Source of the DNA: an uncultured Acidimicrobiaceae bacterium
GTDB lineage: Bacteria; Actinomycetota; Acidimicrobiia; Spongiisociales; UBA5794
Assembly (NCBI GenBank): GCA_964416425.1
Contig: CAYQEC010000005.1
Location: 9,328-73,327 of the forward strand
Direction: 5' to 3'
DNA length: 64,000 bases
Shown here: positions 6,612 to 53,510 of the stretch, in pieces
How the letters are laid out: each line of letters begins with the position of its first letter
Numbering within the stretch: position 1 is the stretch's first letter
Notes under the pieces: model-generated
Databases searched by the model: none
What the model was told of the DNA's origin: nothing
Seen by the model: only the letters and a program-made list of their open reading frames with translations
Made by a program: the position numbers and the translations under genes

Positions 6612-6671
6612 CCCGACCTGACATGCGATTCGGCATAAGATGGCGATTGCGGCGGAGCGTCTGCGGGGGTC

Positions 6672-7634
6672 GTGGACACCGCGAATGACGAAGAGGGAAC
6701 CGTGACGGACTACTACGACCCGAATCGACCACCTCCCGACGAGCCGTTCGACCCCTACGAGGGCCTGCTCGATCTCTCCGGGGGCGAGCCCATCCCGCCC
6801 CTCGAGGATCCGCGCCTCCCGCCCGCCGGCCCTCCCCGCTCCCCGCTCCTCACCGGCCTCATCCTGGGACTGCTGCTGGTGGTGTTGAGCATCGCCCTCT
6901 TCCAGTTCGCCCGCGGCGACGACACCGCGGCCGGGCCCACCGAGACCACGGCCCCCGGCGACACCGTCGCCGGGGACGGGGGAACCACCGTGGCGGGTAG
7001 CGAAACCACCGCGCCCGACGACGGCTCCACGACATCCTCGACGACGCTCCCGAGTTCCGGACAGCCCTACGTGGCTGCAGGCGATCCGATCCCGATCGAG
7101 GACCTGACGCTCCAGGTCGACGGCATCGGCGAGGTCAAGCTAGGTCAGCCCGCCGCCGAGGCCATCGGGCGCCTCATCGCCAGCCTCGGGGAGCCCGACT
7201 CGGACAGCGGCAACATCGTCTCCTCAGGGACCTACGGGGCGTGCACCGGAGACGCGGTGCGGATCGTCACCTGGGGACCGCTCGCCGCCGTCGTCCTCGT
7301 CGACGACGACGGCACCGAGACCTTCGCCGGCTACCGGGTCGACTGGGACATCCCCACCACGGCGGGAGGAACCCTCGCCGATTCTCCCGCCAGTGACCTC
7401 GCCACCCTCAGCGGGCTCCAGGTGGGGAATTCGGTACGGGAGCTGAAGACCATCTACAACGGCTTCAACATCGACTTCGTCGATGACCCGCAGCTCCATA
7501 CGACCTTCGAGTTGCGGGGCGCCAACACCGACAACCTGCTGCTGTGGGGCCCGGTGACCGCCGACACCGACGCCGGCATCGTCACCGGTATCTACTCTCC
7601 CAACGCCTGCGAGCACTTCTCACTGAACGGGTGA
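6672..7634 (+). CDS. Membrane-anchored protein with the same extracytoplasmic domain as 3380..4594; paralogue B
   Basis: It has an acidic, Pro-rich N-terminus, one TM helix (LLTGLILGLLLVVLSIALF), a Thr-rich linker, and a C-terminal domain with ATLSGLQVG...LLWGPVTADTDAGIVTGIYSPNACEHF. This matches paralogue A, including two conserved Cys residues. Confidence 0.75.
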   Translation: MDTANDEEGTVTDYYDPNRPPPDEPFDPYEGLLDLSGGEPIPPLEDPRLPPAGPPRSPLLTGLILGLLLVVLSIALFQFARGDDTAAGPTETTAPGDTVAGDGGTTVAGSETTAPDDGSTTSSTTLPSSGQPYVAAGDPIPIEDLTLQVDGIGEVKLGQPAAEAIGRLIASLGEPDSDSGNIVSSGTYGACTGDAVRIVTWGPLAAVVLVDDDGTETFAGYRVDWDIPTTAGGTLADSPASDLATLSGLQVGNSVRELKTIYNGFNIDFVDDPQLHTTFELRGANTDNLLLWGPVTADTDAGIVTGIYSPNACEHFSLNG

Positions 7635-7685
7635 AGGTGGTCCGCTAGCATCGCCCCCACCCTCGACCAGGAGAACTCTCCGCCC

Positions 7686-8414
7686 ATGTGGCAGCGCACC
7701 CTGTCGGCCGCCTGGGGAGCCGCCGTCGGCTCCCTGCTCGCCCTTGGCGTCTTGGTGTTGTTCACCGGCCGCCAAGCCATCGGTTCGGTCGGAGCGGTGG
7801 TGCTGGACTACGACGCGGTCCGTGCCCGGCCCCAGTTCGCGGTGTCCAGCGGCGGGCTCTTCCTCTTGGTGGCGGGAATCGCCCTGCTCGGCGGGCTCGC
7901 CGTCGCCGCCCTCACCTACGCCCGCAGCCGAGAGCTGGATCCCACCAGCGAGCGGTTCCCGTTGCGTGCCGTGCTCCCGGTCGGTGCAGTGACCAGCCTC
8001 GTCGCCGGCTATGCCGTGTTGCGGGCCGGTCTCGGGGCGACTGCCGACATCGGCGGCGGCGTAGTCACCATCTCCGCCTTCCGCATGATCGTCGTCACCC
8101 TGCTCGCCGGTTTCGTCGCAGGCGCCGTCACCGCCGGCATCGTCGAACCCCTTGCCCGGAAGCGGGTCCTCGGCTTCGGGGGCGAGGCATGGCCGGCGGA
8201 TCGTGGCACGTTCCTGCGTGCCATGGCACGTGCGGTGGGGGCGCCGATGCTGGCCGCCATCACGATCGTGGCGCTGGCGATCGGTCTGTCCGAACTGCTG
8301 CTCGCCCTCGGCAAGGATGCCGCGGTGGCCGTCTTCGCCGTCGTGGCCGCGGTGGTGCTGGGCGGCGTTGCCCTGGTCGCCTACCGCCCCTGGGACCGAT
8401 CTAACGGCACCTGA
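7686..8414 (+). CDS. Hypothetical polytopic membrane protein (~6 TM)
   Basis: The product is hydrophobic throughout. The alternative frame 7688..8404 is Arg-rich and is rejected. Confidence 0.6.
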   Translation: MWQRTLSAAWGAAVGSLLALGVLVLFTGRQAIGSVGAVVLDYDAVRARPQFAVSSGGLFLLVAGIALLGGLAVAALTYARSRELDPTSERFPLRAVLPVGAVTSLVAGYAVLRAGLGATADIGGGVVTISAFRMIVVTLLAGFVAGAVTAGIVEPLARKRVLGFGGEAWPADRGTFLRAMARAVGAPMLAAITIVALAIGLSELLLALGKDAAVAVFAVVAAVVLGGVALVAYRPWDRSNGT

Positions 8415-9543: not shown

Positions 9544-10149
9544 TCACACCTGCAGCAGGTAGACGACGGTGAAGATGACGATCCAGACGATGTCGACGAA
9601 GTGCCAGTAGAGGCCCACCAGCTCGATGTTGAGGCCGCGCCGGGCGTAGATCCGGCCGTCGAGTGACAGGATGACCATGCCGAGCAGCATCAGCACCCCG
9701 ATGGCGACGTGGGCCCCGTGGAACCCGGTGAGCATGTAGAAAGCCGAGCCGAACGGGCTGGTCGACAGCTTGAGCCCGCCGTGGACGAACTCGGTGAACT
9801 CGAAGATCTGCCCGGAGAGGAACGTGATGCCGAGCAGCCCCGTGCCGGTGAGCCACACCCGGGCCTGGCGCAGGTCGCGGCGCTCATAGGCGTGGTGGGC
9901 GAGCACCATCGTCAGCGAGCTCATCAGCAGCACGAAGGAGCTGGCGGAGGTGAAGGCGAGGTTGAAGATCTCGGCGCCGGGCCCGTCACCGGTGGTGCTC
10001 CGGTAGAGCAGGAACGTCGAGATCATCGCCCCGAAGAACATGCATTCGGAGGCGAGGAAGACCCACACCGCCACCTTGCGGATCGGGATCACGTCGTGGT
10101 GTTCGGCCTCGTGGCCCGCCGTCCCGGCCGTCATCTCGCTCAGGGTCAT
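9544..10149 (-). CDS. ctaE: Cytochrome c oxidase subunit III (CtaE)
   Basis: The 201 aa product runs MTLSEMTAGTAGHEAEHHDVIP...FHGAHVAIG...YWHFVDIVWIVIF. The ATG at 10149 overlaps the ctaD stop (ATGA). Confidence 0.9.
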   Translation of the reverse strand: MTLSEMTAGTAGHEAEHHDVIPIRKVAVWVFLASECMFFGAMISTFLLYRSTTGDGPGAEIFNLAFTSASSFVLLMSSLTMVLAHHAYERRDLRQARVWLTGTGLLGITFLSGQIFEFTEFVHGGLKLSTSPFGSAFYMLTGFHGAHVAIGVLMLLGMVILSLDGRIYARRGLNIELVGLYWHFVDIVWIVIFTVVYLLQV

Positions 10150-12002
10150 GTCGCCGCCTCCCCGTCGATGGGCTCGAGGGACCAGCCGAACAGGCCCGAG
10201 ATGGTGATGAGGGCCCCGATCCAAGCCGCCACCAGCCCCGCCGGCAGGTAGACGAACCCGTAACCCATCGTCACCAGCCCGGCCGCCGCCACGATCGGGT
10301 AGAACGAGGGCGCCGGCAGGTGGATGTCGTGGTGCTCGGCGGCCGGGGCGGGGTCTTCCCGCTCTGCGATGCGGACCGCCCGCCCCTCCTCGTCGGTCGT
10401 GTACTTCTGGTGCCAGTAGTCGTCGAGCGAGGTGACATGGGGAATCTCGTCGAAGTTGTGGGGCGGCGGCGGGGACGGGATCGACCACTCGAGGGTGCGC
10501 CCGTCCCACGGGTCGGGGCCGGCGATGGCGCCGCGCCGGGCGCTGCGCACCACGTTGTAGAGGAAGATCAGGAACGAGAGCCCGATGATGAACGCCCCGA
10601 TCGAGGCGATGGCGTTCCAGAACCCCCAGCCGAGGCCCTCCGGGTAGGTGTAGGTGCGGCGCGGCATGCCGTTGAGGCCGAGGATGTGCATCGGGGCGAA
10701 GGTGAGGTTGAACCCGATCAGCATCAGCCAGAAGTGCCACAGCCCGAGCGTGCGGTTCAGCATGCGCCCGGTCCACTTCGGGAACCAGTAGTAGGCGCCG
10801 GCCACGAAACCGAAGATGGCGCCGCCGAACAGCACGTAGTGGAAGTGCCCGACGACGTAGTAGGTGTCGTGCTGCTGGGTGTCGGCCGGAACCACCGAGT
10901 GGGTCACCCCCGACAGGCCGCCGATGACGAACATGGCGATGAACCCGATGGCGAACAGCATCGGCACCTCGAACCGCACCCGTCCCCCCCAGATGGTGCC
11001 GATCCAGTTGAAGATCTTGACCCCGGTCGGCACCGCGATCATCAGCGTCGACACCCCGAACCCGGCTTCCGCCAGCGGCCCAAGGCCGGCGGTGTACATG
11101 TGGTGCACCCACACTCCGAAGCCCATGAAGCCGATGGCGATGCCGGAGAACACCACGAACGGGTATCCGAACAGCGGCTTGCGGGAGAAGGTGGGCAGGA
11201 TCTCCGAGACGATGCCCATGGCGGGCAGGATCAGCACGTACACCTCGGGATGGCCGAAGAGCCAGAACATGTGCTGCCAGAGCAGCGGGTCACCTCCCGA
11301 GGAGAAGAAGTGGGCGCCGAGGTTGCGGTCGAAGAAGAGCTGGAAGAGGCCGACGCCGAAGATCGGCAGCGAGAAGACGAGGAGGAAGGCGACCACCAGC
11401 GCCATCCAGACGAACACCGGCATCCGCAGCATGGTCATCCCGGGAGCCCGCATCGTGAAGATGGTGGCGATGAAGTTGATCGAGGCCGCGATCGAGGCGA
11501 CCCCGAGGAGCTGGGCGCCGACCGAGAAGAAGTCCATCCGCACCACCTCCCGCAGCTCGGTCGAGAGCGGGGCGTAGCCGAACCAGCCGCCGTCGGGGGC
11601 GCCGCCGAGCACGAACGACGACATCATCAGCACGATGCTGAAGGCGAACAGCCAGTAGCTGAAGGCGTTGAGGCGGGGAAAGGCCACGTCGCGGGCGCCG
11701 ATCATGATCGGCAGCAGGTAGTTCGTGAAGGCGGCGCCGATCGGCATCACCACGCCAAAGACCATGGTGAGCCCGTGCATGGTGAAGAGCTGGTTGTAGG
11801 CGTCGGCGCTGAGGAATTCCTGGTTGGGCCCGATGAGCTGGACCCGGATGAGCAGGGCCTCGAGACCGGCGATGAAGAGCGCGGCGAAGGCGGTGACGGC
11901 GTACATGATGCCGATCCGCTTGTGGTCGACCGTGGTGATCCAGCTCCAGATCCCGTTGGGACCGGTGCGGGGCAGCAGCTCCCGTTCGGCCGTCATCGTC
12001 AC
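10146..12002 (-). CDS. ctaD: Cytochrome c oxidase subunit I (CtaD) with a ~70 aa C-terminal extension containing an extra TM helix
   Basis: The product has the heme-copper oxidase subunit I signature (WLFGHPEVYVLILPAMGIVSE..., HHMYT, GHFHYVL) and a C-terminal tail HDIHLPAPSFYPIVAAAGLVTMGYGFVYL. Confidence 0.95.
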   Translation of the reverse strand: MTMTAERELLPRTGPNGIWSWITTVDHKRIGIMYAVTAFAALFIAGLEALLIRVQLIGPNQEFLSADAYNQLFTMHGLTMVFGVVMPIGAAFTNYLLPIMIGARDVAFPRLNAFSYWLFAFSIVLMMSSFVLGGAPDGGWFGYAPLSTELREVVRMDFFSVGAQLLGVASIAASINFIATIFTMRAPGMTMLRMPVFVWMALVVAFLLVFSLPIFGVGLFQLFFDRNLGAHFFSSGGDPLLWQHMFWLFGHPEVYVLILPAMGIVSEILPTFSRKPLFGYPFVVFSGIAIGFMGFGVWVHHMYTAGLGPLAEAGFGVSTLMIAVPTGVKIFNWIGTIWGGRVRFEVPMLFAIGFIAMFVIGGLSGVTHSVVPADTQQHDTYYVVGHFHYVLFGGAIFGFVAGAYYWFPKWTGRMLNRTLGLWHFWLMLIGFNLTFAPMHILGLNGMPRRTYTYPEGLGWGFWNAIASIGAFIIGLSFLIFLYNVVRSARRGAIAGPDPWDGRTLEWSIPSPPPPHNFDEIPHVTSLDDYWHQKYTTDEEGRAVRIAEREDPAPAAEHHDIHLPAPSFYPIVAAAGLVTMGYGFVYLPAGLVAAWIGALITISGLFGWSLEPIDGEAAT

Positions 12003-14127: not shown

Positions 14128-14958
14128 TCAGCCGGCTCCCCCGACAGCGGTGACGAGCCCGAGCACGTTGTCCCCGGTGTCGGTCGGCTCGATGGAGTGG
14201 AGGACCTCCGACAGCGCCGCGAACAGCTCCTTGACGGCCCAGGCCAGCACCAAGAACAGCACGATGATCACCACGATGGTGAGCACGGCCCGGATCCAGT
14301 AGAGCCAGCGCTTCTGCGGGTCGAACAAGGCCCGGAAGGGGTCGAACCAGGCGTCCCACGGCGACGGGGGTCTCCGGGGAGCGGTCATGGTGGCCACCGC
14401 GGCCGGTGCTTCGGCATACGGCTCGCGGGCGGGCTCGGGGAAGGGGGCGCCGACCGGGGGGAAGATCGCCTCGGTGGGGGCGTCGGCGAGATCGAGCACC
14501 GGAATCGGCGGCGGCGGATCGCCGACCTCGACAGGATCACCGACCTCGATGGCGGTGTCGGCCGCCGACCACAGATCCCCGAGGTCGAGGTCGTCGTCCA
14601 TCTGCGGCACATCGTCGTCGGCGGCCGGGGTGGCGGGAGCGGCCTCTGCCGGCACCGCAGCCGGGGCGGCAGGCGGCGCCACGGCTGGTGCCGCGGGTGC
14701 GGGCGGTTCCGGCTCCGGCGGAGGGGGTGGGACGGCCGCTTCGGGCGGTGGGAGCATGGCGGCGATGTCGCCGAGGTCGATCTCGAGGGTCTCGGCGAGC
14801 CGTTCCACCAGGTCCGGGTCGGGGTATCCTTCGCCGCGCTCCCACTCACGGACCACGGCGGCGGTCCGGCCCACCTTGCTGGCGAGCTGGCCGAGGGAGT
14901 AGCCCGCGGCGAGACGGCGCTCCCGCACCAGGTCGCCCAGTGTCGATTCCTCGGTCAT
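14128..14958 (-). CDS. XRE-family HTH protein with a Pro/Ala-rich linker and a C-terminal TM anchor
   Basis: The N-terminal HTH is LGDLVRERRLAAGYSLGQLASKVGRTAAVVREWERG. It is followed by a PPPPPEPEPPAPAAPAV low-complexity stretch and the C-terminal helix WIRAVLTIVVIIVLFLVLAWAV. Confidence 0.75.
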   Translation of the reverse strand: MTEESTLGDLVRERRLAAGYSLGQLASKVGRTAAVVREWERGEGYPDPDLVERLAETLEIDLGDIAAMLPPPEAAVPPPPPEPEPPAPAAPAVAPPAAPAAVPAEAAPATPAADDDVPQMDDDLDLGDLWSAADTAIEVGDPVEVGDPPPPIPVLDLADAPTEAIFPPVGAPFPEPAREPYAEAPAAVATMTAPRRPPSPWDAWFDPFRALFDPQKRWLYWIRAVLTIVVIIVLFLVLAWAVKELFAALSEVLHSIEPTDTGDNVLGLVTAVGGAG

Positions 14959-15049
14959 CTATCCCCTCGATCGGTGCGCGGCAGCCTATCCCACGTTCCC
15001 GCAGAACCAACGCCTCCGGGGTGCGGCGAGGTTCCCGAAACCTGTCCCG

Positions 15050-15127
15050 GCGGAGGCGGACGGGAATCGAACCCGCCAGGGAGCGTGCGCTCCCTCAACG
15101 GTTGTGCAGACCGTTCCGGGCGCCTTG
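15050..15127 (-). pseudogene. Degenerate partial duplicate of tRNA-Sec (no D-arm; anticodon loop mutated to CUGCACA; no CCA)
   Basis: It shares ~57 nt with selC at 15681..15775 with one mismatch, covering the T-arm, the variable-arm hairpin GGGAGCGCACGCUCCC and the acceptor 3' strand. The 5' acceptor strand and D-arm do not fold. Confidence 0.6.
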
Positions 15128-15256
15128 GGAGTGTATCGGCCTTCCAACGAGATCGGACGGAAACCCTTGCAGGACCGGGCATTCTATCGAGACTCGCCCG
15201 TATGGCGCGCTCGGGTGGGCAGGCAGGTCCGACCGTGCCATCATCTGGTGGTGAGC

Positions 15257-15640
15257 GTGACGCGTCGTCGGGTGACGTGGCTTGGAGGCGGATTGCTCGT
15301 CCTCGCCGCGCTCACGGCGTTTCTTTGGCTGGGTCCCCCCGGTTCGGCGTATCGCGCCAACGATGCCTATGCGGCTTGTGTCACCCGGGCCGAGTCGCTG
15401 GGCACCGCGGCTGCAGAAGGCGGACTCGACCCCGAGTACATCGCTGCGATGAGCGAGTGTGCGGAGCACTGCGAGCCGATCACTGATCCGTCATGGCTCG
15501 AGACGGTGGGGTTGTTCATGCAAACGAGGGTCTCGTCGAGCCGGGACGGGCCGTCGTGCCTGTGGCAGCAGCCCGGCTTCAGCGACATCATCCCGTTCCT
15601 TCCGGGCGATGACATGCACGACGTCGGGCCGCGGAACTGA
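15257..15640 (+). CDS. Small hypothetical secreted/membrane protein between the two selC copies
   Basis: A GTG start gives VTRRRVTWLGGGLLVLAALTAFLWLGPPGSAYRANDAYAACV..., a signal-peptide-like N-terminus. In-frame GTGs at 15248 and 15251 are alternative starts. Confidence 0.4.
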   Translation: MTRRRVTWLGGGLLVLAALTAFLWLGPPGSAYRANDAYAACVTRAESLGTAAAEGGLDPEYIAAMSECAEHCEPITDPSWLETVGLFMQTRVSSSRDGPSCLWQQPGFSDIIPFLPGDDMHDVGPRN

Positions 15641-15680
15641 TTCGACGGCCGCCCGACATCCTCTGGCACCCGGCGAGGGT

Positions 15681-15775
15681 TGGCGGAGGCGGACGGGAAT
15701 CGAACCCGCCAGGGAGCGTGCGCCCCCTCAACGGTTTTGAAGACCGCGGGACCCACCAGGCATCCGGACGCCTCC
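15681..15775 (-). tRNA. selC: tRNA-Sec (selC), anticodon UCA
   Basis: The reverse complement reads GGAGGCGU...CGGUCUUCAAAACCG...long variable arm AGGGGGCGCACGCUCCCUG, GCGGGUUCGAUUCCCGU, CCGCCUCC-G-CCA. The anticodon loop CUUCAAA is identical to E. coli selC. The acceptor stem is extended, the gene is 95 nt, and the CCA is encoded. Confidence 0.75.
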
Positions 15776-15846: not shown

Positions 15847-16167
15847 ATGGACGCGACGAAGCTGATGGTGTGGATCGACCAGGATCTCTGCACCGGTGAC
15901 GGCATCTGCGAAGAGATCGCACCGGACGTGTTCCTCGGCCGCGACGACGGGCTCTGGGTCGTCAAGGAGGAGTCCTCGTTCTTCGGAACCACCACGATCT
16001 TCGACGGCGCCGAGGGTGACGGCCACGGCCCGGACGGGGCACAGGGCGTCGCCCGGGTCCCGGACAGCATCATCGACTCCGTGGTCGAGGCCGCCGAGGA
16101 ATGCCCCGGCGAATGCATCATGATCGAGCCGTACGACGCCGCCATCGTCGCCAACCGCGGCGTCTGA
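15847..16167 (+). CDS. Ferredoxin (single-cluster 3Fe-4S/4Fe-4S, FdxA-like)
   Basis: The product begins MDATKLMVWIDQDLCTGDGICEEIAPDVF and ends ...ECPGECI. The track ORF 15718..16167 is an upstream extension that overlaps the tRNA. Confidence 0.8.
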   Translation: MDATKLMVWIDQDLCTGDGICEEIAPDVFLGRDDGLWVVKEESSFFGTTTIFDGAEGDGHGPDGAQGVARVPDSIIDSVVEAAEECPGECIMIEPYDAAIVANRGV

Positions 16168-20325: not shown

Positions 20326-21570
20326 CTACATCAGATCCCACAGGGTCCGGGTGGAATCCGATTCCGCCTCACCGAGCATCTCGTCGTCGGCGGTTTGCCG
20401 GCGATGGGCCACCACCGGGATGAGGACCGCCGAGACGTACACGACCTGGATGGCGAGGGCGAGGACTCCGGCGGCGGTGAGCCCGAAGACGATCGGCACC
20501 ACCGGCACCACCGGGATGAGGGCCCCGAGCACCCAGGCGAACTGGAAGAACGTCTCGGAGTTAGTGAAGGCGCGGCCCCGCGACTCGACCGGCACCGTCG
20601 ACTGCAGCAGGCCGTCGAAACCGAACTTGGCGGTGCCCCAGGCGAAGCCGGCGGCGCCGGCCAGCGCCGCCGCGGCGGGGAGCCCGAACACCTGGGCGGC
20701 GATGAAGGCCGCCCCCGCTTCGATGGCGAGCCCGGCCACCACCATCGGCTCCTCGGACATGTGGCGGTCGAAGATGGGGGTGACGAAGGCGGCGACGAAG
20801 TAGCCGCCGCCGGCGGCGCCGAGCAGGGCGCCGAAGTCGAGGAACCCGGCGTCGCCGTGGAAGGCGAAGGTGACGAGCAGCAGGAGGAACCCGTTGAGGA
20901 ACCGCACCCCGGCCGTGGCAAAACGGGCCAGCCGCACCGAGCGGGGAGTGGCCACTGCCCGGCGTTCGCGGCGGGTCCGCCGGATCGCCCTCCCCACGGC
21001 GACTTTGGGGAGCTCGAAGGCACTCATCGCCGACCAGACGTAGACGGCGGCGGCGGACACCAGGGCGAACCAGGGCCATTCCATCGTCACGCTGATGACC
21101 CCGGCCGGGAGGATGGCGACGCTGGCGACGACGCCGACCCGGGCGAGCTGGGCGTTGCCGGCGATGAGGTCGCGCCGCCCTTCCAGCACCCCGGGCAGCA
21201 CGCTGCTGCGGGCGATGCCGTGGAACCGGGACAGCACGAGCAGCAGGAACGCCATCGGAAACAGCGCCAGCGACCCGACCCAGATCATCATCGCCACCGC
21301 CAGCAGCGCCCGCAGGGTGGCGCTCAGCACCAACCCGCCCCGGTAGGCGGAAGGAAACCGCTCGAAGACGCCGCCGAGGAACGGGCCGATCACCGCGAAG
21401 GGCGCCATTGTGATGAGCAGGTAGAGGGCGACGTTGGCCCGGGCCTCCGAAGACGGCACCGAGAAGAACAAGGTGCCGGCCAGCGCCATCGCCACCAGCG
21501 TGTCGCCGCCGACCGACCCGGCGTGGGATTCGGCAAGGCGCCGGAAGCCGGGCCCGCGCGAGCTGAACAT
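20326..21570 (-). CDS. Polytopic membrane protein, MFS-like transporter
   Basis: From MFSSRGPGFRR the product has ~12 hydrophobic segments. The upstream 75 codons of the track ORF are Arg-rich and rejected. Confidence 0.55.
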   Translation of the reverse strand: MFSSRGPGFRRLAESHAGSVGGDTLVAMALAGTLFFSVPSSEARANVALYLLITMAPFAVIGPFLGGVFERFPSAYRGGLVLSATLRALLAVAMMIWVGSLALFPMAFLLLVLSRFHGIARSSVLPGVLEGRRDLIAGNAQLARVGVVASVAILPAGVISVTMEWPWFALVSAAAVYVWSAMSAFELPKVAVGRAIRRTRRERRAVATPRSVRLARFATAGVRFLNGFLLLLVTFAFHGDAGFLDFGALLGAAGGGYFVAAFVTPIFDRHMSEEPMVVAGLAIEAGAAFIAAQVFGLPAAAALAGAAGFAWGTAKFGFDGLLQSTVPVESRGRAFTNSETFFQFAWVLGALIPVVPVVPIVFGLTAAGVLALAIQVVYVSAVLIPVVAHRRQTADDEMLGEAESDSTRTLWDLM

Positions 21571-21659
21571 GAGGCGGAGCCGCTCTGCGGCGAGGCGGGT
21601 CCCGGCCCGGGCCGATGCGCCCAGTCGAGAGCGTCCGGAGGGGCTCTCCTGGCGGTCGT

Positions 21660-21669
21660 GTGACGTCAC
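21660..21669. promoter_or_regulatory. Perfect palindrome GTGACGTCAC upstream of the MFS-like gene
   Basis: A 10 bp perfect palindrome lies ~90 nt upstream of the 21570 start. Confidence 0.3.
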
Positions 21670-21766
21670 CTTCGGCAAGTTAGCCGGGTGGGCGGTGGTC
21701 GTGACCCCAGGGAGCCGCTTCGGTCGATGGAACCTCAGAGGCCTCCTGATCCGGCCCCCGACGCGA

Positions 21767-21809
21767 CAGAACCCGCCGGGCCGTTGCCGTACCACGCCGA
21801 CGGGTTCTG
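21767..21809. terminator. Stem-loop CAGAACCCG-N25-CGGGTTCTG downstream of the HIT gene
   Basis: A 9 bp inverted repeat lies in the HIT-MFS intergenic region. Confidence 0.3.
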
Positions 21810-21906
21810 CAGGTCCGCGATCTGCCTCGCAATCCTCCCCCCTGCTATCGGCATTCGCCGTCGCGAAACTTGAGGCAACGCAGCCGATTTCTCGGCAGGG
21901 GCGGAC

Positions 21907-22329
21907 TCAGGCGACGAACTCGCCGTATCCCAGGTCGTGCAGCGCCGCCCGGATCGTCTCCGCCGCGGCGTCGAGGGCGCCCGGGTCCGGGGCGGGGTCG
22001 GCGTTCTCGAACCGGAGGTCCCGCTCCGAGTCGATCGGGACGAGATGGAGGTGGGTGTGCGGCACCTCCAGGCCGGCCACGATGACACCCACCTTCACCG
22101 GCGCGAAGCCCTGCTGCAGCGCCTGCCCGATGCGGCGGCACACCTCGGTGAGATGCGCCAGGAGGTCGGGGTCGAGGTCGATCCAGTGGTCGACCTCCTC
22201 CCGCGGCACGACGAGGGTGTGGCCGGGGGCGATCGGGTTGATGGAGAGGAAGGCGACGCACCGATCGTCCTTCCAGACGAACCGGCCCGGCAGGTCGCCG
22301 TCGATGATCATGGTGAACACCGATGCCAT
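21907..22329 (-). CDS. HIT family hydrolase
   Basis: The histidine triad is HTHLHLVP, and the N-terminus is FVWKDDRCVAFLSINPIAPGHTLVVP. Confidence 0.9.
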   Translation of the reverse strand: MASVFTMIIDGDLPGRFVWKDDRCVAFLSINPIAPGHTLVVPREEVDHWIDLDPDLLAHLTEVCRRIGQALQQGFAPVKVGVIVAGLEVPHTHLHLVPIDSERDLRFENADPAPDPGALDAAAETIRAALHDLGYGEFVA

Positions 22330-22346
22330 GGGGCGAGGTTACCGCC

Positions 22347-46658: not shown

Positions 46659-47090
46659 TCACGACCCGATGCGGGGCGTCGACGTCCCGCTGATCTGCAC
46701 CAGCACCGGGTCCTCGCCTGCCAGCAGCCCGCTGAGCAAGGCGAACTCGACCTCCCGTTCCAGGTACACGGTGACCTCGGTCTCGGTCGCCGCCACCATC
46801 GTCACCACCTCGGCCGGGTCGTAGCCGTCCTGGCGATCCAGGTACTCCAATGCCCGCGCCTCGGCCACACCCGGCACCAGGCGGGCCTCCCCGGTGGCCC
46901 GGAAGTGGCCCTCGTCGACGGCGGTGGCGCCCGCCACCGCGGCGGCGTCGGCCCACCCCGCCACCTCCTGCCGCTCGCTGAACGCCCGGTACAGGTCGAA
47001 GACGATCGACCCCAGCACGAACAGCACCAGGCAGAACCCGAGCACCCACAGCGTCACCGACCCCGCCTCGCCGGCGGCCCGGCGCCTCAC
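46659..47090 (-). CDS. TadE/TadG-like pseudopilin
   Basis: The N-terminal hydrophobic TadE segment is SVTLWVLGFCLVLFVLGSIVFD. Confidence 0.7.
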   Translation of the reverse strand: MRRRAAGEAGSVTLWVLGFCLVLFVLGSIVFDLYRAFSERQEVAGWADAAAVAGATAVDEGHFRATGEARLVPGVAEARALEYLDRQDGYDPAEVVTMVAATETEVTVYLEREVEFALLSGLLAGEDPVLVQISGTSTPRIGS

Positions 47091-47539
47091 GGGAAGCTCC
47101 GGAAGTCATCGACCCGTTCGGTGTGCTCCCGGGTGATCGTGAACGACTCCCACAGCGGGCCCACCAGCGGCACCGTGACGATCGGGAACCCGATCTCGAC
47201 CCGGGCGGTCACCGTCCCGCCCCGGGTCAACTCCCCCACCGGCGGGTCGAGTTCGAAGTCGACCGACACCACGTCGGGGTCGAGCCCGTGGTTGGCGGCG
47301 ATGGAACGGGCGATCTGGATGCCTGCCTCCTGCCCGGCGGCGGCGTCGTCGGCCAGCACCATCACCCGGGCCGCCTCCTGGGCCGCCAGGTTCGCCACCC
47401 CGTTGCGCTCCAGCATCCCCGGCACCTGGGCCAGCACCATGATCGTCGGGAACAGCAGCAACCCGACGCCGAGCAGCATCTCGATCACGGCATAGGCGCC
47501 GACCTCTTCGCGCCGCAGGCGCCGCAGCAGCACCCTCAC
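47087..47539 (-). CDS. TadE-like pseudopilin
   Basis: The N-terminus is GAYAVIEMLLGVGLLLFPTIMVLAQ. Confidence 0.7.
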   Translation of the reverse strand: MRVLLRRLRREEVGAYAVIEMLLGVGLLLFPTIMVLAQVPGMLERNGVANLAAQEAARVMVLADDAAAGQEAGIQIARSIAANHGLDPDVVSVDFELDPPVGELTRGGTVTARVEIGFPIVTVPLVGPLWESFTITREHTERVDDFRSFP

Positions 47540-47895
47540 GGCGCCACCTCCTGCACCGCCTCACCTCGCAGGCTGAACGACCATGCCGGCAACCCGGGCA
47601 GCGGGCTGTGGAGAGTGGCGTCGGCCACCGCCACCAGATTCCCGGACACCGGGTCGATCTCACAGGTGATCGACACCTCGTCTCCGAGGGGCCCGCCCAG
47701 TAGCGCATCGAGGGCGTTCTCGGCCCGAGCGTCGCACGCCACGACCCCGGCGCCGGCCCGCGACCCGGCCCGCACCGCCTCGTCGGCGGCAGACCGCACC
47801 ACGCTACGGGCATACAGGAAGGTGAGGACGTTGACGAGCACCATCGCCGTGAGCACGGTGAAGGCGATGGCGAGCAGCGTCGTCACCGTCGTCAT
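47536..47895 (-). CDS. TadE-like pseudopilin
   Basis: The start is at MTTVTTLLAIAFTVLTAMVLVNV. Confidence 0.65.
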   Translation of the reverse strand: MTTVTTLLAIAFTVLTAMVLVNVLTFLYARSVVRSAADEAVRAGSRAGAGVVACDARAENALDALLGGPLGDEVSITCEIDPVSGNLVAVADATLHSPLPGLPAWSFSLRGEAVQEVAP

Positions 47896-47941
47896 CCCGG
47901 CCTCGTCCCGTCGCAGGCGGCAGCCGCCCGCCTGAGACGGC

Positions 47942-48148
47942 TCAGGGACAGGCACCACCGATCCCGATCTGGTCCCGGATCCAGCACAGCACATCGACGC
48001 CGAGGGCCTGCATGATGCCGACGGTCGCCATGATGGCGATCACCGTCACCACGATCCAGGCGAAGATCTGGGCGCTCTCCACCGCGCCCCGCTGCTCGGC
48101 GCCGACCCTGCCGGCGATTCGTCCCATTCGTCTCCACACGGTTCTCAT
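47942..48148 (-). CDS. flp: Flp-family type IVb pilin
   Basis: The 68 aa product has a G/AVE cleavage-like motif (EQRGAVESAQIF) followed by a hydrophobic helix (AWIVVTVIAIMATVGIM). Confidence 0.65.
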   Translation of the reverse strand: MRTVWRRMGRIAGRVGAEQRGAVESAQIFAWIVVTVIAIMATVGIMQALGVDVLCWIRDQIGIGGACP

Positions 48149-48197
48149 TGGCTCCCTCCTGCACGGTCGGCATCGGACGTCACGGTTGGATTCACGG

Positions 48198-49160
48198 TCA
48201 ACCCCCTTGGAAGATCAGGCTCGGGATCGGCGCCCCGATGAACAGCAGCACGATCGGGGCCAGCACCACGACGATGGGAATCACCATCATCAGGCGCCGG
48301 CGAGAAGCGGCCCTTTGCAGGTCCTCGCGGCGGGCGGCCCGCAGGTCGCGGCTCAGGTCGAGCAGCGTCTCCCCCAGGTCGGCGCCGCGGTCCTGGGCGG
48401 TCGCCAGCACCGAGTAGGTGCGGGCCGCTTCCGGCTCGGGCGTGAGACGGATCGCCCGCTGCAGGGCGCGCGACAGCGCCATCCCCGACTCGTGGAGACG
48501 CAGCACCTCGGCCAGCTCGTCGACGAAGGCGCCGTGACCGCGCACCACGACGTGGCGGATGGCGTCGAGCACCCCGCCACCGACCCTGGTCCGCATCGCG
48601 ATGAGCTGGTTGATCGTGTACAACTCGCCCCGGATCCGTTCCCGCCGCGCCAGGATCGCCTTGTCGACCCGGCTCCGGGCCTGCAGCACCCCGAGCACGA
48701 AGCCCGCCCCGCCGAAGATCACCATCCAGGCCGGGTCGCGGATCAGCAGCCCGAGGAACCCGAGACCGACCGCCATAGCCACGGCCCGCACGAACGCCCG
48801 GATGCGGAACTCCTGGACTCGCTGCACCTCGGGGAGGTCGGGGTAGAGGCCGGCCTGGCGTAGCCGCACCGCGAGGCGCTCGACGTTGGAGGCCGAGATG
48901 AGCCGGGCGAACCCACGCACCATGCCGTCGAGCACCGGCCCGAACAGCCGGCGCAGCGTCCCGTCGCCGAGGACCGGCCCGGCCGTCGCCGCGCCGTGCA
49001 CGTCGGCGGGGCGGGTCAGCCTCACCCGGGTGACCGTCGTGTAGGGGCGGACCCGCCCGGCGAGGGGACGCAGCGGTCGCGCCACCACCCACACCGCCGA
49101 GGCGACGAACAGCAGCGAGGAGGCGATCGCGACCAGCTCGAGTGGGGTGAGGTCGGTCAT
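48198..49160 (-). CDS. tadC: Tad pilus assembly inner-membrane protein TadC (T2SSF family)
   Basis: The ATG at 49160 overlaps the tadB stop (ATGA). A T2SSF domain is present. Confidence 0.8.
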   Translation of the reverse strand: MTDLTPLELVAIASSLLFVASAVWVVARPLRPLAGRVRPYTTVTRVRLTRPADVHGAATAGPVLGDGTLRRLFGPVLDGMVRGFARLISASNVERLAVRLRQAGLYPDLPEVQRVQEFRIRAFVRAVAMAVGLGFLGLLIRDPAWMVIFGGAGFVLGVLQARSRVDKAILARRERIRGELYTINQLIAMRTRVGGGVLDAIRHVVVRGHGAFVDELAEVLRLHESGMALSRALQRAIRLTPEPEAARTYSVLATAQDRGADLGETLLDLSRDLRAARREDLQRAASRRRLMMVIPIVVVLAPIVLLFIGAPIPSLIFQGG

Positions 49161-50065
49161 CGCGCCCCCGCCTTGTCCCGCTCGGCGGTGAGGGTCGACC
49201 CGCCGCCGAAGACCCGCACCTCCTCGGTGCGGCGGGAGATAACCCGCAGCAACACCCACCCCACCACCGCCCATGCCCCGGCGAGCAGCACTACGAAGCG
49301 GCCCTGGGGAGAGCGGTAGAACTCGCGGTACGCCTCGGGCACCGTCGCCAGGAACAGCAGGATCACCCACGGGGCCACCGCCACGACGACACTCTCCAGC
49401 CGCTGCTCGAGACCGGCGGTGCGGATCTGCTCGGCGGTGAGCTGGTCGGCCACCATCGTCTCGATGAGGTCGCGCAGCACCACCTGGAGGGTTTCCCCGC
49501 CATGCTGGTGGGCCAGCACCAGCACCTCGATCACCTTGTCGGAGGAGGGATCGGCCAGTTCCTCCTTGATGATCTCCAGCGCCGGCACCACCCCGAGCAT
49601 GCGGGCCTGCATCGGGAAGCGGGCGAACGCCTCCTGCAACGGCGCCGGACCGCGGTCGGCCAGCGCCTCGATGCCGTTCGCCAGCGTCGCTCCCGAGTTG
49701 ACGTGGGCCAGGATCTCGCGCAAGCCGTCGGGCCACGACCGCTGCACCTCGGCGAGGCGACGGGCCCGTTGCCGGCCGTACTGCAGGTAAGGGGCGCAGG
49801 ACACGGCGACGGCCGGGATCAAGGCCACCCACCAGGTGCCTGCCAGCACCAGGAAGGCGAGGAAGGCGACCAGTCCGGCACCGATCGAGCCGACCCAGAA
49901 CTGGCGGGGGGTGAGGTCGGATCCCGCCTGGAGCAGCCAGAGTTGGCGGCGCGACACCTGGGGGCGGCGGGTGGTCCGGGCGGTCGGGTTGGGGGCCAAC
50001 CCGGCGAGGTGGGCCACCGCCAGGTAGGCGAACGCCGCCGAGCTGAGCGCAGCCAGCAGCCTCAC
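49157..50065 (-). CDS. tadB: Tad pilus assembly inner-membrane protein TadB (T2SSF family)
   Basis: A GTG at 50065 gives VRLLAALSSAAFAYLAV, with a GTGA overlap onto cpaF. The 751 aa track ORF is an artefact. Confidence 0.8.
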   Translation of the reverse strand: MRLLAALSSAAFAYLAVAHLAGLAPNPTARTTRRPQVSRRQLWLLQAGSDLTPRQFWVGSIGAGLVAFLAFLVLAGTWWVALIPAVAVSCAPYLQYGRQRARRLAEVQRSWPDGLREILAHVNSGATLANGIEALADRGPAPLQEAFARFPMQARMLGVVPALEIIKEELADPSSDKVIEVLVLAHQHGGETLQVVLRDLIETMVADQLTAEQIRTAGLEQRLESVVVAVAPWVILLFLATVPEAYREFYRSPQGRFVVLLAGAWAVVGWVLLRVISRRTEEVRVFGGGSTLTAERDKAGAR

Positions 50066-51369
50066 AGCCCCGGCCTCCAGGCGCCGTTCAGGATGTTGGC
50101 CACCGAGGCACCTTCGGGCAGCGCCCGGTCGATGCGGTCGACCATCGGCTCGGGCGGGAAGGTGCCGGTCCAGCGCATCGGCTCGCCGAGGGCGGCCCGA
50201 CGGAAGACCGGCTCGGTGGTGAAGTCGTCGGTCGCCAGCGACGGGGTGACCGCCAGGATCTCGGCGACTTGGCGGCGGATGCCCCGGTCGCCGTTCTCGG
50301 GCCGGCGCATGTCCCGTTCCAGGTGTACCACGAAGTCGATCGAGCCGGCGAAGACCTTGCGCACGATCGGCTCGGTGACGTTCTCGCCGGCCATGATGGC
50401 GGCGTTGACGATGGCGGCGAGGGCGTCGCGGGCCGAGTTGGCGTGCACGGTGCAGGCGAAGCCGCAGCCGGCGTTGACCGCCCGGGTCAGCTCGAATGCT
50501 TCGGCGCCCCGCACCTCGCCGACGCAGAGCAGGTCGACCCGTTGTGCCAGGCTCACCTTCACCAGGTCCCGCAACGAGTAGCGGCGCGATCCCTCCAGGG
50601 TCACCGGCGACGCCTCGTAGTAGCTGCTGTGGGGTGAGAGCGGGATGTGCAGCTCGCGCACCTCCTCGCAGATGCGGATGCATTGGTCGTCGGGCACGGC
50701 GCGCAGCCAGGCGCTCATGAAGGTGCTCTTGCCGGCGCCGGTCGCTCCCGAGAACAGGATCGAGGTCGAGGCCTGCGCCGCCGCCCACAGGAACGCCGCC
50801 GCGGTGCGACTCACCGACCCCAGCTCCACCATCGAGGCCAGGGTCTCGTCGGCGACGGTGTACTTGCGGATCGTCGCCGAGAGGCGGGCCGACACCGGCG
50901 GCACCACCGCGGTGAGGCGGGCGGTGCCGTCGAGCACGTGGGCTTGCTCGATGGCGTTGGAGCTGTCGAGGCGCCGGTTGGTGCCGGCGAGGAGGCGGTC
51001 GACGACCTGACGCAGCTCCGCCTCCGAGGTCGACGCGATGAGGGAGCGGAGCTCCCCGGAGTCGTCGATGTAGGAGACCCGGTCGCCCTCGAGGAACACC
51101 TCCTCCACCGCCGGGTTCTCCAGCAGCTCGGTGAGCGGTCCGAACCCGGCGACCGCCTGCCACAGGCGGCGCTCCATGTCGGCCGGGTCGCGCAGCGGCT
51201 CGGCGAGGCCCTTGTGGGCGTTCGACTGGTAGTCGCCGACGACGCCGCGGATCACCTGCTGCACCCCGTCGGATTGACTCCGGACGTCGAGCTTGCGGTC
51301 CTCGATCCGCTCCACCGCCTGCTCCCGCAGCCGCTCGTAGGCGCTCGGGGCCCTGGTCGGCGGGGTCAC
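50062..51369 (-). CDS. cpaF: CpaF/TadA secretion ATPase
   Basis: The Walker A is GATGAGKST, and T2SSE motifs are present. A GTG start overlaps the cpaE stop. Confidence 0.9.
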   Translation of the reverse strand: MTPPTRAPSAYERLREQAVERIEDRKLDVRSQSDGVQQVIRGVVGDYQSNAHKGLAEPLRDPADMERRLWQAVAGFGPLTELLENPAVEEVFLEGDRVSYIDDSGELRSLIASTSEAELRQVVDRLLAGTNRRLDSSNAIEQAHVLDGTARLTAVVPPVSARLSATIRKYTVADETLASMVELGSVSRTAAAFLWAAAQASTSILFSGATGAGKSTFMSAWLRAVPDDQCIRICEEVRELHIPLSPHSSYYEASPVTLEGSRRYSLRDLVKVSLAQRVDLLCVGEVRGAEAFELTRAVNAGCGFACTVHANSARDALAAIVNAAIMAGENVTEPIVRKVFAGSIDFVVHLERDMRRPENGDRGIRRQVAEILAVTPSLATDDFTTEPVFRRAALGEPMRWTGTFPPEPMVDRIDRALPEGASVANILNGAWRPGL

Positions 51370-52631
51370 GCCGGAGTCTCCGAGGGCGGTGCGGTGGCAC
51401 GGCGCCCGGCACCGAGGGTCGCCACCAGCACGTCGAGCGCCCTGGTGAACCGTCGCGCCGCCACCACCTCGCCCTGCCAGGCGGCCGTGCGCACCCGCGG
51501 CTCGTCGGGGAGAAAGCTCACCGAAGCGGCGGGGAAGGTACGGGTGATCTCCTCGATGAGCTCCCCCCGCTGGTAGATGCTGCGGGCGCACCGGTTCATC
51601 ACCACGTGGACCGGCGCCGGCGACAGGGTCCGGGCGTCCCCGATCCAGGCCAGGGTGGCGGTGACGCCAGTGGGGGACGGCTCGCCGACGACGACCAGAT
51701 GGTCAGCGGTCCCCACCAGGACCCGGGACACCCCGAAGCGGCCGGCCCCGGCCCCGAACGTGGTCAGGTCCTCCAGGTGGCGCCCGACCCGCACCACCAC
51801 GTGGCGGAAGGCCGCCGCCAGCTCGGTCACGAGATCCAGCGCCTCGTCATCCCGGCACGCCTCCCATTCCCGCGGGCTGGGAAGCCCTCCGATGACGGCG
51901 AAGCCCTCCGGGTGGGAGGTGAAGGAGCCGTCGAGCGTGCCGCCGAAACGGAGACTCTCGACCGCGGTGAACACGTTGGGGGTGAGGTCGAGGCCGAGCC
52001 GCTGGCACACCGCCGGTTCCAGGGTGTCGAAGTCGACCAGTACCGTCGACTGGGCACGGCGGGCGAAGCGGGCGGCGAGGCCGACGGCTACCTCGGTGGC
52101 GCCGCCCTGCCCACTCACGACCACGACGCCGCGGGCCCCGGCCTCGGACTCGGAGCGGATCGGGGACCCGGTGTCGTGCGGCCCCGAGGACTGGCCGCCC
52201 GGTGGCGTATCGTCCCGGCCCTCGACCGTCACGATCCCGGTGAAGGCCCGGTCGAACTGACGCTGCTCGGTGATCGAGCGGATCCGGGCCAGGAAGTCGC
52301 GGGGGGAGGCGTCGGCCCGCAGGGTGTCGTCGACCCCCATGGCGAGCAACTTGTCCCGGCCCAGCTCGCCCCGCTCCCCGTCGTAGACGCCGATCACGAT
52401 GCGGTGGCGTCCCTGCACCCGGGCCACCAGCCGCTGGCTGAGGAAGCTCGACGAGTCGTCGATGACGAGCACGTCGTAGTCGCTCTCGAGTGCGTCGCGG
52501 GTCGACAGCACCGTGCCGACCACCCGCACCCCGGCGTGGTCGCGGGCGTAGCTCATGAGATCGGCCACCCAGGGACGCTGCGACGAGCTGAGGGCGACCG
52601 CCGGCTCCCGCTGCATCGGCCGCGCCGTCAC
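51366..52631 (-). CDS. CpaE/TadZ-like pilus assembly ATPase (receiver-like N-terminus + atypical ParA/MinD domain)
   Basis: The product has VVVVSGQGGATEVAVGLAARFA, the atypical Walker A typical of TadZ. Confidence 0.75.
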   Translation of the reverse strand: MTARPMQREPAVALSSSQRPWVADLMSYARDHAGVRVVGTVLSTRDALESDYDVLVIDDSSSFLSQRLVARVQGRHRIVIGVYDGERGELGRDKLLAMGVDDTLRADASPRDFLARIRSITEQRQFDRAFTGIVTVEGRDDTPPGGQSSGPHDTGSPIRSESEAGARGVVVVSGQGGATEVAVGLAARFARRAQSTVLVDFDTLEPAVCQRLGLDLTPNVFTAVESLRFGGTLDGSFTSHPEGFAVIGGLPSPREWEACRDDEALDLVTELAAAFRHVVVRVGRHLEDLTTFGAGAGRFGVSRVLVGTADHLVVVGEPSPTGVTATLAWIGDARTLSPAPVHVVMNRCARSIYQRGELIEEITRTFPAASVSFLPDEPRVRTAAWQGEVVAARRFTRALDVLVATLGAGRRATAPPSETPA

Positions 52632-53380
52632 GACCCACCCTCTTCCGATGGCTCCGGCGCGGGGTCGCCGCCGGCGGTGGCCTGCTCCAAGGTGGGATCG
52701 GGCGCCCCGGTGGAGCGGATGAGATGAACCTCCCCCGAGTCGAGGGCGGCGGCGATCCGCAAGGCGTCCTCGTCGGTGACCGCCAGGGTCGGGGTCCAGC
52801 TCGAGGTGGCCCCGAGAGCCCGGGAGTCGACCGTGGGGGTGTCGATCACTTCGACGTCGACGGCGACGAAGCGGGCCAGGCCCGCCTCGACCACGACCAC
52901 GTCGACCCGGTCGCCGCGGCGGAGGCTCCCTGCGACCGCCCGGCCCTTGTCGACGGGGACGCTCATCGCCCGAAGGCCGTCCTGGGTCTCCACCGCCCGG
53001 ACGTCGGAGACCAGGATCGGCTCACCGGGAGCGATGGTACGGGTGGCGACGCTGCCGACCGCCGCCTCGATCTGGTCGGCAGCGAGCAGGTGGTCGGAGA
53101 GGAGCCGGTCGGCGGGGATGCGTCGCACGGTGACGAGACCGTCGGTGATCGCCATGCCGGAGCGGATCTCCCCGCCGGCGACGGCGACGGCGATCGTGGC
53201 CTGGTTGCCGCGGATCACCGCCAAGTTGAAGACGAGGGCGAGCAGCCCGGCGAGCACCATCAGCACGTGGCCCAACTTGACCCGCGACAGCGGGTTGCGT
53301 TTTGGCGGCTCCTGCTCTTCGAGCGCAGTCAGGCGGCCGCCAGTTCCGGTCGATCGCTCAGCCACTTCCCCCTCCCCCAC
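52628..53380 (-). CDS. cpaB: Flp pilus assembly protein CpaB/RcpC (SAF domain)
   Basis: The product has an N-terminal TM helix followed by SAF/RcpC-like beta domains. Confidence 0.75.
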   Translation of the reverse strand: MGEGEVAERSTGTGGRLTALEEQEPPKRNPLSRVKLGHVLMVLAGLLALVFNLAVIRGNQATIAVAVAGGEIRSGMAITDGLVTVRRIPADRLLSDHLLAADQIEAAVGSVATRTIAPGEPILVSDVRAVETQDGLRAMSVPVDKGRAVAGSLRRGDRVDVVVVEAGLARFVAVDVEVIDTPTVDSRALGATSSWTPTLAVTDEDALRIAAALDSGEVHLIRSTGAPDPTLEQATAGGDPAPEPSEEGGS

Positions 53381-53510
53381 TCGGACTCATGGGTCCGCGG
53401 AGCCCGTCAGAATCGGCGCTGCGGCGGACCATACCAAGCCATGGAAAAGGCCACCAATCCGCAATGCCACCCTCGGTGGTCGCGTGACTCATTGTGAGGC
53501 AATGCTATCC

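Follow-up and report, generated by a model that had tools for sequence, protein, structure and literature searches.

A decayed tyrosine-integrase element as the likely source of a partial second selC copy in an uncultured Acidimicrobiaceae bacterium

In the 64,000-nt stretch of Acidimicrobiaceae DNA analyzed here (the window, ∼69.5% G+C), a complete selC gene for tRNA-Sec is accompanied downstream by a same-orientation fragment of its own 3′ part, with a gap of 567 bp between the two. We consider it very likely, at a probability of about 0.9, that the locus is the scar left in selC by an integrated tyrosine-integrase element that has since decayed to these 567 bp. Of the two origins that the initial annotation had offered, a decayed element or a local duplication, the former is borne out by relatives, which have complete and partial integrase-bearing elements at selC with att repeats of the same extent, as well as empty or decayed sites at which the outer flanks are joined. 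The feature is of an ordinary, known kind, and nothing about it is mechanistically new.

The gene order around the locus is cox/ctaG operon (−), TauE (+), HTH_31 regulator (−), partial selC copy, small open reading frame (ORF; +), selC, ferredoxin (+), Rv2632c-like, MarR, MFS, CBS and HflX, and contigs identical to this region are present in several JGI and Logan metagenome assemblies. The chromosomal flank on the side of the partial copy is represented by the HTH_31/XRE-type regulator gene at 14128..14958 (−; Pfam), which is syntenic in the related loci L011–L013 and L017, and the flank on the 5′ side of selC by a single-cluster ferredoxin gene at 15847..16167 (+; Pfam Fer4_15/Fer4_13), whose ortholog has selC directly upstream in L021, L035, L043, L044, L089 and L100–L103. 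About 30 kb from the selC locus, and unrelated to it, a Tad/Flp pilus-type cluster (TadE-like, T2SSE ATPase, RcpC/CpaB) occupies 46659-53386 (−).

On the minus strand at 15681..15775, ARAGORN calls tRNA-SeC (anticodon tca), the sole tRNA gene across the 64 kb, and the Rfam model RF01852 scores the interval at 70.3 bits against a cut-off of 47, in agreement with the tRNA fold that had been proposed there from the letters. The other traits ascribed to the gene were seen as well: the UCA anticodon lies in a CUUCAAA loop, the variable arm is long and GC-rich, and the discriminator G73 is followed by an encoded CCA. RNAfold adds an acceptor/T branch of 7+6 = 13 bp, which together with the anticodon loop, the variable arm and G73 is what is expected of a tRNA-Sec, the list of criteria for which also includes a 6-bp D-stem with a tetraloop. 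The gene is 90–95% identical to selC of relatives, its 5′ 29 nt being the same or almost the same as theirs, and since the differences are limited to the variable arm, where pairing is preserved, it looks functional as far as its sequence can tell. A Pfam scan of about 50 window ORFs found no SelA, SelB, SelD, formate dehydrogenase, integrase or recombinase domain, so that the reported lack of selA, selB and selD in the window holds. The statement that the 64 kb contain no obvious selenoprotein gene also survived a check of two pairs of same-frame ORFs separated by TGA, at 6639-8414 (+) and 20326-22338 (−): in the JGI annotation each ORF is a gene of its own, and no Pfam domain of selenoprotein type turned up in any of them. 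Both pairs have high GC3 and a single TGA between their ORFs, and the second includes a HIT-family gene.

A BLAST self-comparison places the partial copy (copy 2) at 15049..15113 (−) against 15682..15746 (−) within selC, a direct repeat of 65 nt with a start-to-start distance of 633 bp and three mismatches (62 of 65 positions identical, 95.4%; E about 1e-25). The repeat corresponds to selC nt 30–94: it opens at the first base of the anticodon-stem 5′ strand and spans the anticodon loop, variable arm, T arm and 3′ acceptor strand, ending with GCC, the discriminator and two C's. Its 3′-most 55 nt contain a single mismatch (A versus G, in the variable arm), and the remaining two lie in the anticodon loop, which reads CUGCACA in copy 2 versus CUUCAAA in selC, while the trailer after the discriminator G is CCG in copy 2 versus CCA in selC. 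The initial annotation had thus read the GCA-bearing loop and the missing CCA of copy 2 correctly, and the repeat that it described is real, but the span that it gave, 15050..15127, overshoots the significant match by about 14 nt. Nor is the D-arm of copy 2 'deleted', as had been proposed; it was rather never homologous. Similarity between the copies 5′ of the repeat is at chance level, with a local alignment score that is reached by 412 of 2000 shuffles and a global score equal to the shuffle mean, and no further selC fragments were found in the 64-kb window. An intact tRNA gene with a same-orientation 3′ fragment downstream is the configuration of a tRNA-gene island, in which the copy within selC would be the attL core and copy 2 attR.

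Relatives of the locus were gathered by means of two anchors, the HTH protein and the ferredoxin, which gave 3 genome loci and 80 metagenome loci. Among the 72 ferredoxin-anchored metagenome loci with >300 nt of upstream sequence, five have an intact single selC upstream of the ferredoxin gene, and in four of these (L021, L035, L043, L044) an orthologous tyrosine integrase gene converges on selC and ends about 10 nt from its 3′ end. Longer contigs retrieved via close integrase homologs (L100–L103) show the order TrwC relaxase, integrase, selC, ferredoxin, CBS, HflX; here, too, as in those four loci, the integrase adjoining the selC 3′ end is an ortholog with a PF00589 domain, and the integrases of the four metagenome loci have a SAM-like N domain besides. 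The intact selC-integrated island for which the initial annotation had proposed to look in related genomes was found in L097 (GCA_024641245.1, a 232-kb contig), which carries a complete ∼9-kb integrase and relaxase element at selC. There the integrase gene (10001-11221) ends 10 nt from selC (11231-11323), and 9049 bp away a partial selC copy at 2180-2245 repeats selC nt 30–95 with a single mismatch. The left boundary of this repeat, CGGTCTTCAAAACCG, falls on the same base in L097 and in the window. Besides the integrase, the L097 element encodes a TrwC relaxase and an ABC-2 membrane protein, has two ORFs of unknown function, and carries adjoining genes for a TacA1 antitoxin and an acetyltransferase. 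Because it has a TrwC relaxase and no visible T4SS genes, the L097 element looks, from its gene content, like an integrative mobilizable element. The TacA1-family antitoxin gene and the 163-aa GNAT acetyltransferase gene (PHROG 1758) at L097:2431-3233 form a TacAT-like toxin–antitoxin pair.

A further integrase, at L099:8670-9989, is 87% identical to the selC-associated one and lies 45 nt from a tRNA-Ser(tga) gene, whose anticodon arm, CGGTCTTGAAAACCGTT, differs from that of selC solely at the middle anticodon base. The near-identity of the two arms suggests that the core site of recombination is the anticodon arm, and the pair gives the impression that members of one integrase clade have switched targets between tRNA-Sec and tRNA-Ser(UGA). 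The trailers after the discriminator add a polarity to the insertion. In copy 2 and in the selC remnants of L012, L013 and L017 the trailer is CCG, followed by conserved chromosomal flank; in the relatives' integrase-adjacent selC genes it is CGA or CTA, followed by element DNA; and the window selC alone has CCA, followed by sequence not seen elsewhere. This pattern of trailers and flanks indicates that the 3′ part of selC came with the inserted DNA and that copy 2 is the original chromosomal 3′ end, and it supports reading the window selC as a regenerated target gene on the attL side, with nt 1–29 chromosomal and nt 30 to the 3′ end from the inserted DNA. The element-side DNA itself is less informative. 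Next to attR, a homology to the end of the L097 element is suggestive by eye and fails the shuffle test (scores reached by 251 of 3000 and 2917 of 3000 shuffles), the attL-side junction is unlike the integrase end of the L097 and L100 elements, and the small ORF of the window was not found in the L097 element.

The complementary evidence comes from loci without the insert. In L012, L013 and L017 the ferredoxin and HTH genes lie 184–275 bp apart, and in L012 and L013 they are divergent neighbours with gaps of 184 and 275 bp. The L013 gap holds one full-length but decayed selC-like sequence, and the L012 gap contains a short 3′ remnant along with the 5′ flank of selC (CCCGGTAGCCTGACA); in both, the DNA 3′ of the remnant matches that which follows copy 2 in the window (CCGGGACAGGTTTCGGGAACC...). 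In all three loci, then, a single decayed selC remnant lies between the 5′ flank of selC and the 3′ flank of copy 2, and the outer flanks of the window locus are contiguous, as is expected of the empty site of a tRNA-gene island. In L017, nt 1–15 of selC run directly into the final ∼35 nt of a 3′ half, and what is lost comprises the remainder of selC, the small ORF and the 5′ part of copy 2. L011, from a sister species of the window's, keeps an ortholog of copy 2 and a small ORF with its 5′ part deleted, the counterpart of window 15246-15463 being missing; L011 and L017, at 98–99% identity, are one species. Taken together, these four loci indicate that the place of selC between the ferredoxin and HTH genes is the ancestral one, and that the window has an insertion of ∼0.6 kb inside selC.

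The decayed remnants at the ferredoxin/HTH spot (L012:375-560, L013:5725-6001, L017:974-1182) are of interest beyond the insertion. Selenocysteine tRNA genes seem to have been lost repeatedly in this Acidimicrobiaceae clade, and since selC decayed independently in several relatives, selenocysteine use has presumably been lost repeatedly as well, leaving a patchy distribution. The deleted selC at L017:1064-1111, which consists of nt 1–15 with the T arm and 3′ acceptor strand, is an acceptor/T-arm minihelix that Rfam rates as resembling tmRNA (RF00023, 33.8 bits, under the 47-bit cut-off), probably a meaningless curiosity. Within the window's own population there is no variation to follow: ten contigs that share the ferredoxin sequence do not differ anywhere in the locus (100% identity). 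The same strain was assembled independently five times in Logan (L003, L004, L005, L007, L009) with contigs that start at window 15694, inside selC at the 65-nt repeat, which shows that the repeat suffices to fragment short-read assemblies at this locus.

What remains of the inserted DNA in the window is the 567-bp stretch at 15114..15680, which is missing in L012, L013 and L017, has 66.5% GC compared with 69.5% for the window, and encodes neither integrase nor relaxase. Its only surviving cargo is the small ORF at 15293..15640 (+), which converges on selC, has a GC3 of 0.81, is called on JGI contigs, and encodes 115 aa from a TTG start or 127 aa from a GTG at 15257. The product has an N-terminal hydrophobic segment and four Cys residues and belongs to no Pfam or PHROG family; its homologs, at 59–65% identity, lie in unrelated contexts in other contigs. 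That the window has no integrase, as the initial annotation had it, was confirmed by three approaches: no PF00589 domain was found with Pfam, tblastn at E<=10 detected no integrase remnant in the spacer or the rest of the window, and a profile built from 116 family integrases gave a best E of 0.65 over all six frames. Since an integrase is absent here yet present in relatives at the same tRNA gene, the window holds a remnant and not a complete island.

We propose the following course of events. A tyrosine-integrase element of about 9 kb with integrase and TrwC relaxase genes, like those in related Acidimicrobiia, would have integrated site-specifically into selC by a crossover at or near the anticodon stem-loop, presumably in the loop itself. 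Since the element would itself have carried everything in selC from nt 30 onwards, in this case including the CCA, its integration would have restored a complete tRNA-Sec gene at 15681..15775; the original 3′ 65 nt would have been displaced downstream and would persist at 15049..15113 as a fragment without function, still abutting its former chromosomal flank. Deletions that presumably followed would have taken out the integrase gene and almost all of the cargo, so that 567 bp remain, with a single small ORF of secreted-protein-like character. The lost element presumably belonged to the same integrase family as the elements of the relatives; its family is deduced from them, as the window retains no integrase remnant and its junctions are not significantly similar to those of L097. 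One observation sits uneasily with such a scar, namely that two of the three repeat mismatches fall within the 7-nt anticodon loop, which is uneven for neutral decay, and these mismatches may be what fixed the remnant in place.

Two other accounts of the repeat have to be weighed against a decayed element. If selC had been duplicated locally, in tandem or as a segment, with subsequent decay of the 5′ half of the downstream copy and no mobile element involved, Rfam's alignment of copy 2 over the entire model (1–91) would fit, as would short motifs that the eye can pick out as common to the two copies, TAGAA and GCCCGGT in the DNA upstream and GGAGGC versus GGAAGGC in the 5′ acceptor strand. However, the shuffle tests given above leave these 5′ resemblances without significance, and a whole-gene duplication including the promoter was rejected on that ground; neither flank has a duplicate, and the rest of the window contains no further match. 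The repeat moreover ends sharply at the anticodon stem, exactly where the att repeats of a real element end, which is unexpected from uniform decay, and the spacer contains a foreign ORF with homologs in unrelated contexts. A local duplication, the other option of the initial annotation, is thus very unlikely.

The second account accepts the element and differs in its present state: the 0.57-kb unit could be a still-mobilizable cis-mobilizable element (CIME) that has kept its att sites and is served by an integrase acting in trans, or in cis from an incoming L097-type element. By the definition in PMC6323972, a CIME is flanked by attL and attR and has lost its integration and transfer genes, and the window unit does have both att sites in direct orientation and lacks these genes. 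Elements with a matching att extent circulate in relatives, and the remnant is present in L011 and absent from L017 of the same species. Yet the anticodon loop of attR, the presumed crossover, bears two substitutions here and three in L011, a likely obstacle to recombination; L017 shows a hybrid with an internal deletion and no clean excision product; and neither circular forms nor empty sites were seen in the window's population, in which all 10 contigs are identical. Continued mobility is therefore unlikely, and the locus is a CIME-like remnant in the terms of PMC6323972, probably, as far as its att sequences allow one to say, one immobilized by the mutations in the attR anticodon loop. Quite unlikely, too, is a pair of bolder ideas, that the attL–ORF–attR unit is a minimal hitch-hiking CIME-like cassette movable by the selC-targeting integrase/relaxase elements of Acidimicrobiia, or that copy 2 is transcribed into a D-armless, tRNA-Sec-like RNA with a GCA anticodon. 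Were the cassette real, it would spread a small secreted cysteine-containing protein; the D-armless RNA is even less likely than the cassette.

The possibility that copy 2 is itself a functional non-canonical tRNA or tRNA-like RNA, either a tRNA-Sec(GCA) that would read Cys codons as Ser or Sec or a tRNA-Cys of the selC* type, deserves separate treatment on account of Rfam, which matches RF01852 to 15052..15144 at 47.0 bits, exactly the gathering score. The copy also has a perfect 6-bp anticodon stem and intact variable and T arms, and both sense-codon tRNA-Sec and selC* tRNA-Cys are known in other phyla, the latter having been reported from Firmicutes, Thermodesulfobacteria, Nitrospirae and delta-proteobacteria (Mukai et al. 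2017, PMC5389517). Inspection of the alignment shows, though, that it spans model positions 1–91 with a 16-nt insert in place of the D-arm and two non-standard acceptor pairs. The stretch at 15114..15144 (−), which supplies the alignment with its pseudo 5′ acceptor strand and 'D-arm insert', is element-side DNA and not homologous to selC, as judged from the alignment, the shuffle test and the L097 attR. That genuine attR (L097 2187-2290) yields the same kind of 'full-length' RF01852 alignment, at 41.2 bits and with a 33-nt insert replacing the D-arm; the match of copy 2 is accordingly an artefact of a displaced tRNA fragment. The initial annotation had named a valid tRNA fold of this copy with covariance support as a finding that would speak against it; the borderline score formally touches this point, but the attR control removes its force. 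Its statement that the copy does not fold into a cloverleaf is shared by RNAfold, which finds none (z = −0.67), and by ARAGORN, which calls neither a Sec nor a Cys tRNA in copy 2, relaxed thresholds included.

Comparison with relatives argues in the same direction. Between the window and L011, identity is 98.6% at the HTH coding start, 94.4% in the flank between HTH and copy 2, 89.2% in the repeat part of copy 2, 87.1% in its 5′ extension and 96.0% in the DNA upstream of it, so that copy 2, at 87–89% versus 94–96% in both flanks, is the least constrained stretch. In the Rfam register, one acceptor position has changed from G:C to C:G relative to L011, a compensatory-type change that would favour a functional RNA, but because pairs are lost to two other changes in that stem and to one in the T-stem, we treat it as chance. 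The L011 ortholog scores 23.2 bits on RF01852 with its T-stem broken, and copy 2 is found only in the window's species and L011, its 5′ part being absent from L017. The selC* tRNA-Cys are defined by U73, a complete cloverleaf and a GCA or UCA anticodon (PMC5389517). Copy 2 resembles these tRNAs, allo-tRNAs and sense-codon tRNA-Sec in its match to the tRNA-Sec model and its GCA triplet; unlike selC* tRNA-Cys it has G73, C37, two acceptor mismatches and no D-arm, it has no selB* or cysS* nearby, and its divergence, which exceeds that of the intergenic DNA on either side, is that of neutral DNA and not of a conserved gene. On these grounds we rejected the tRNA(GCA)/selC* reading, which is extremely improbable: the 'GCA anticodon' of copy 2 is two point mutations in dead sequence and no recoding device.

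The decayed element that we favour has counterparts among known systems. In Enterobacteriaceae, selC is a tyrosine-integrase hotspot for large virulence islands such as LEE and SHI-2. The target gene and its role as such a hotspot are the same here, whereas the phylum is another, the integrase lineage presumably unrelated, and the insertion a tiny one-ORF remnant instead of a large island. Among tRNA-gene islands collected by Islander, an anticodon-centred attP is the commonest class (2083 of 3919 islands; PMC4383910). The window locus shares with islands of this type ('A' att sites) the intact regenerated tRNA gene with a same-orientation 3′ fragment, an identity block running from the anticodon stem to the 3′ end and, in relatives, a tyrosine integrase against the tRNA 3′ end. 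It differs in measuring 567 bp, in having no integrase and in its target, selC of an Acidimicrobiaceae bacterium, and Islander's integrase and length filters would reject it for the first two reasons. With CIMEs and decayed ICE or IME remnants it has in common the attL and attR flanks, the loss of integration and transfer genes and the existence of related full elements with an integrase and TrwC relaxase; unlike CIMEs, which by definition keep intact att sites, its attR is substituted in the presumed crossover loop.

With its relatives, the locus marks selC in uncultured Acidimicrobiia as a hotspot of active integration by a family of integrase/relaxase elements. In practice it serves mostly as a caution that copy 2 should not be annotated as a second tRNA-Sec or a tRNA(GCA): since Rfam scores the fragment at exactly the gathering cut-off, automated annotation may report selC twice in this genome, or a tRNA-Sec whose anticodon is that of Cys.

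The small ORF of the remnant leads to an uncharacterized protein family of ∼115–150 aa with an N-terminal hydrophobic segment, of which L014:10001-10354, L015:10001-10390 and L016:270-719 are members. No tRNA, att-like sequence or integrase was found near these three homologs, so that their contexts are uninformative about the element. The homologs in L014 and L015 adjoin toxin–antitoxin genes. The L014 contig, 4.16 Mb in length, also carries a SAM riboswitch (RF00162, 68 bits) at L014:17882-17962, which is unrelated to the selC locus.
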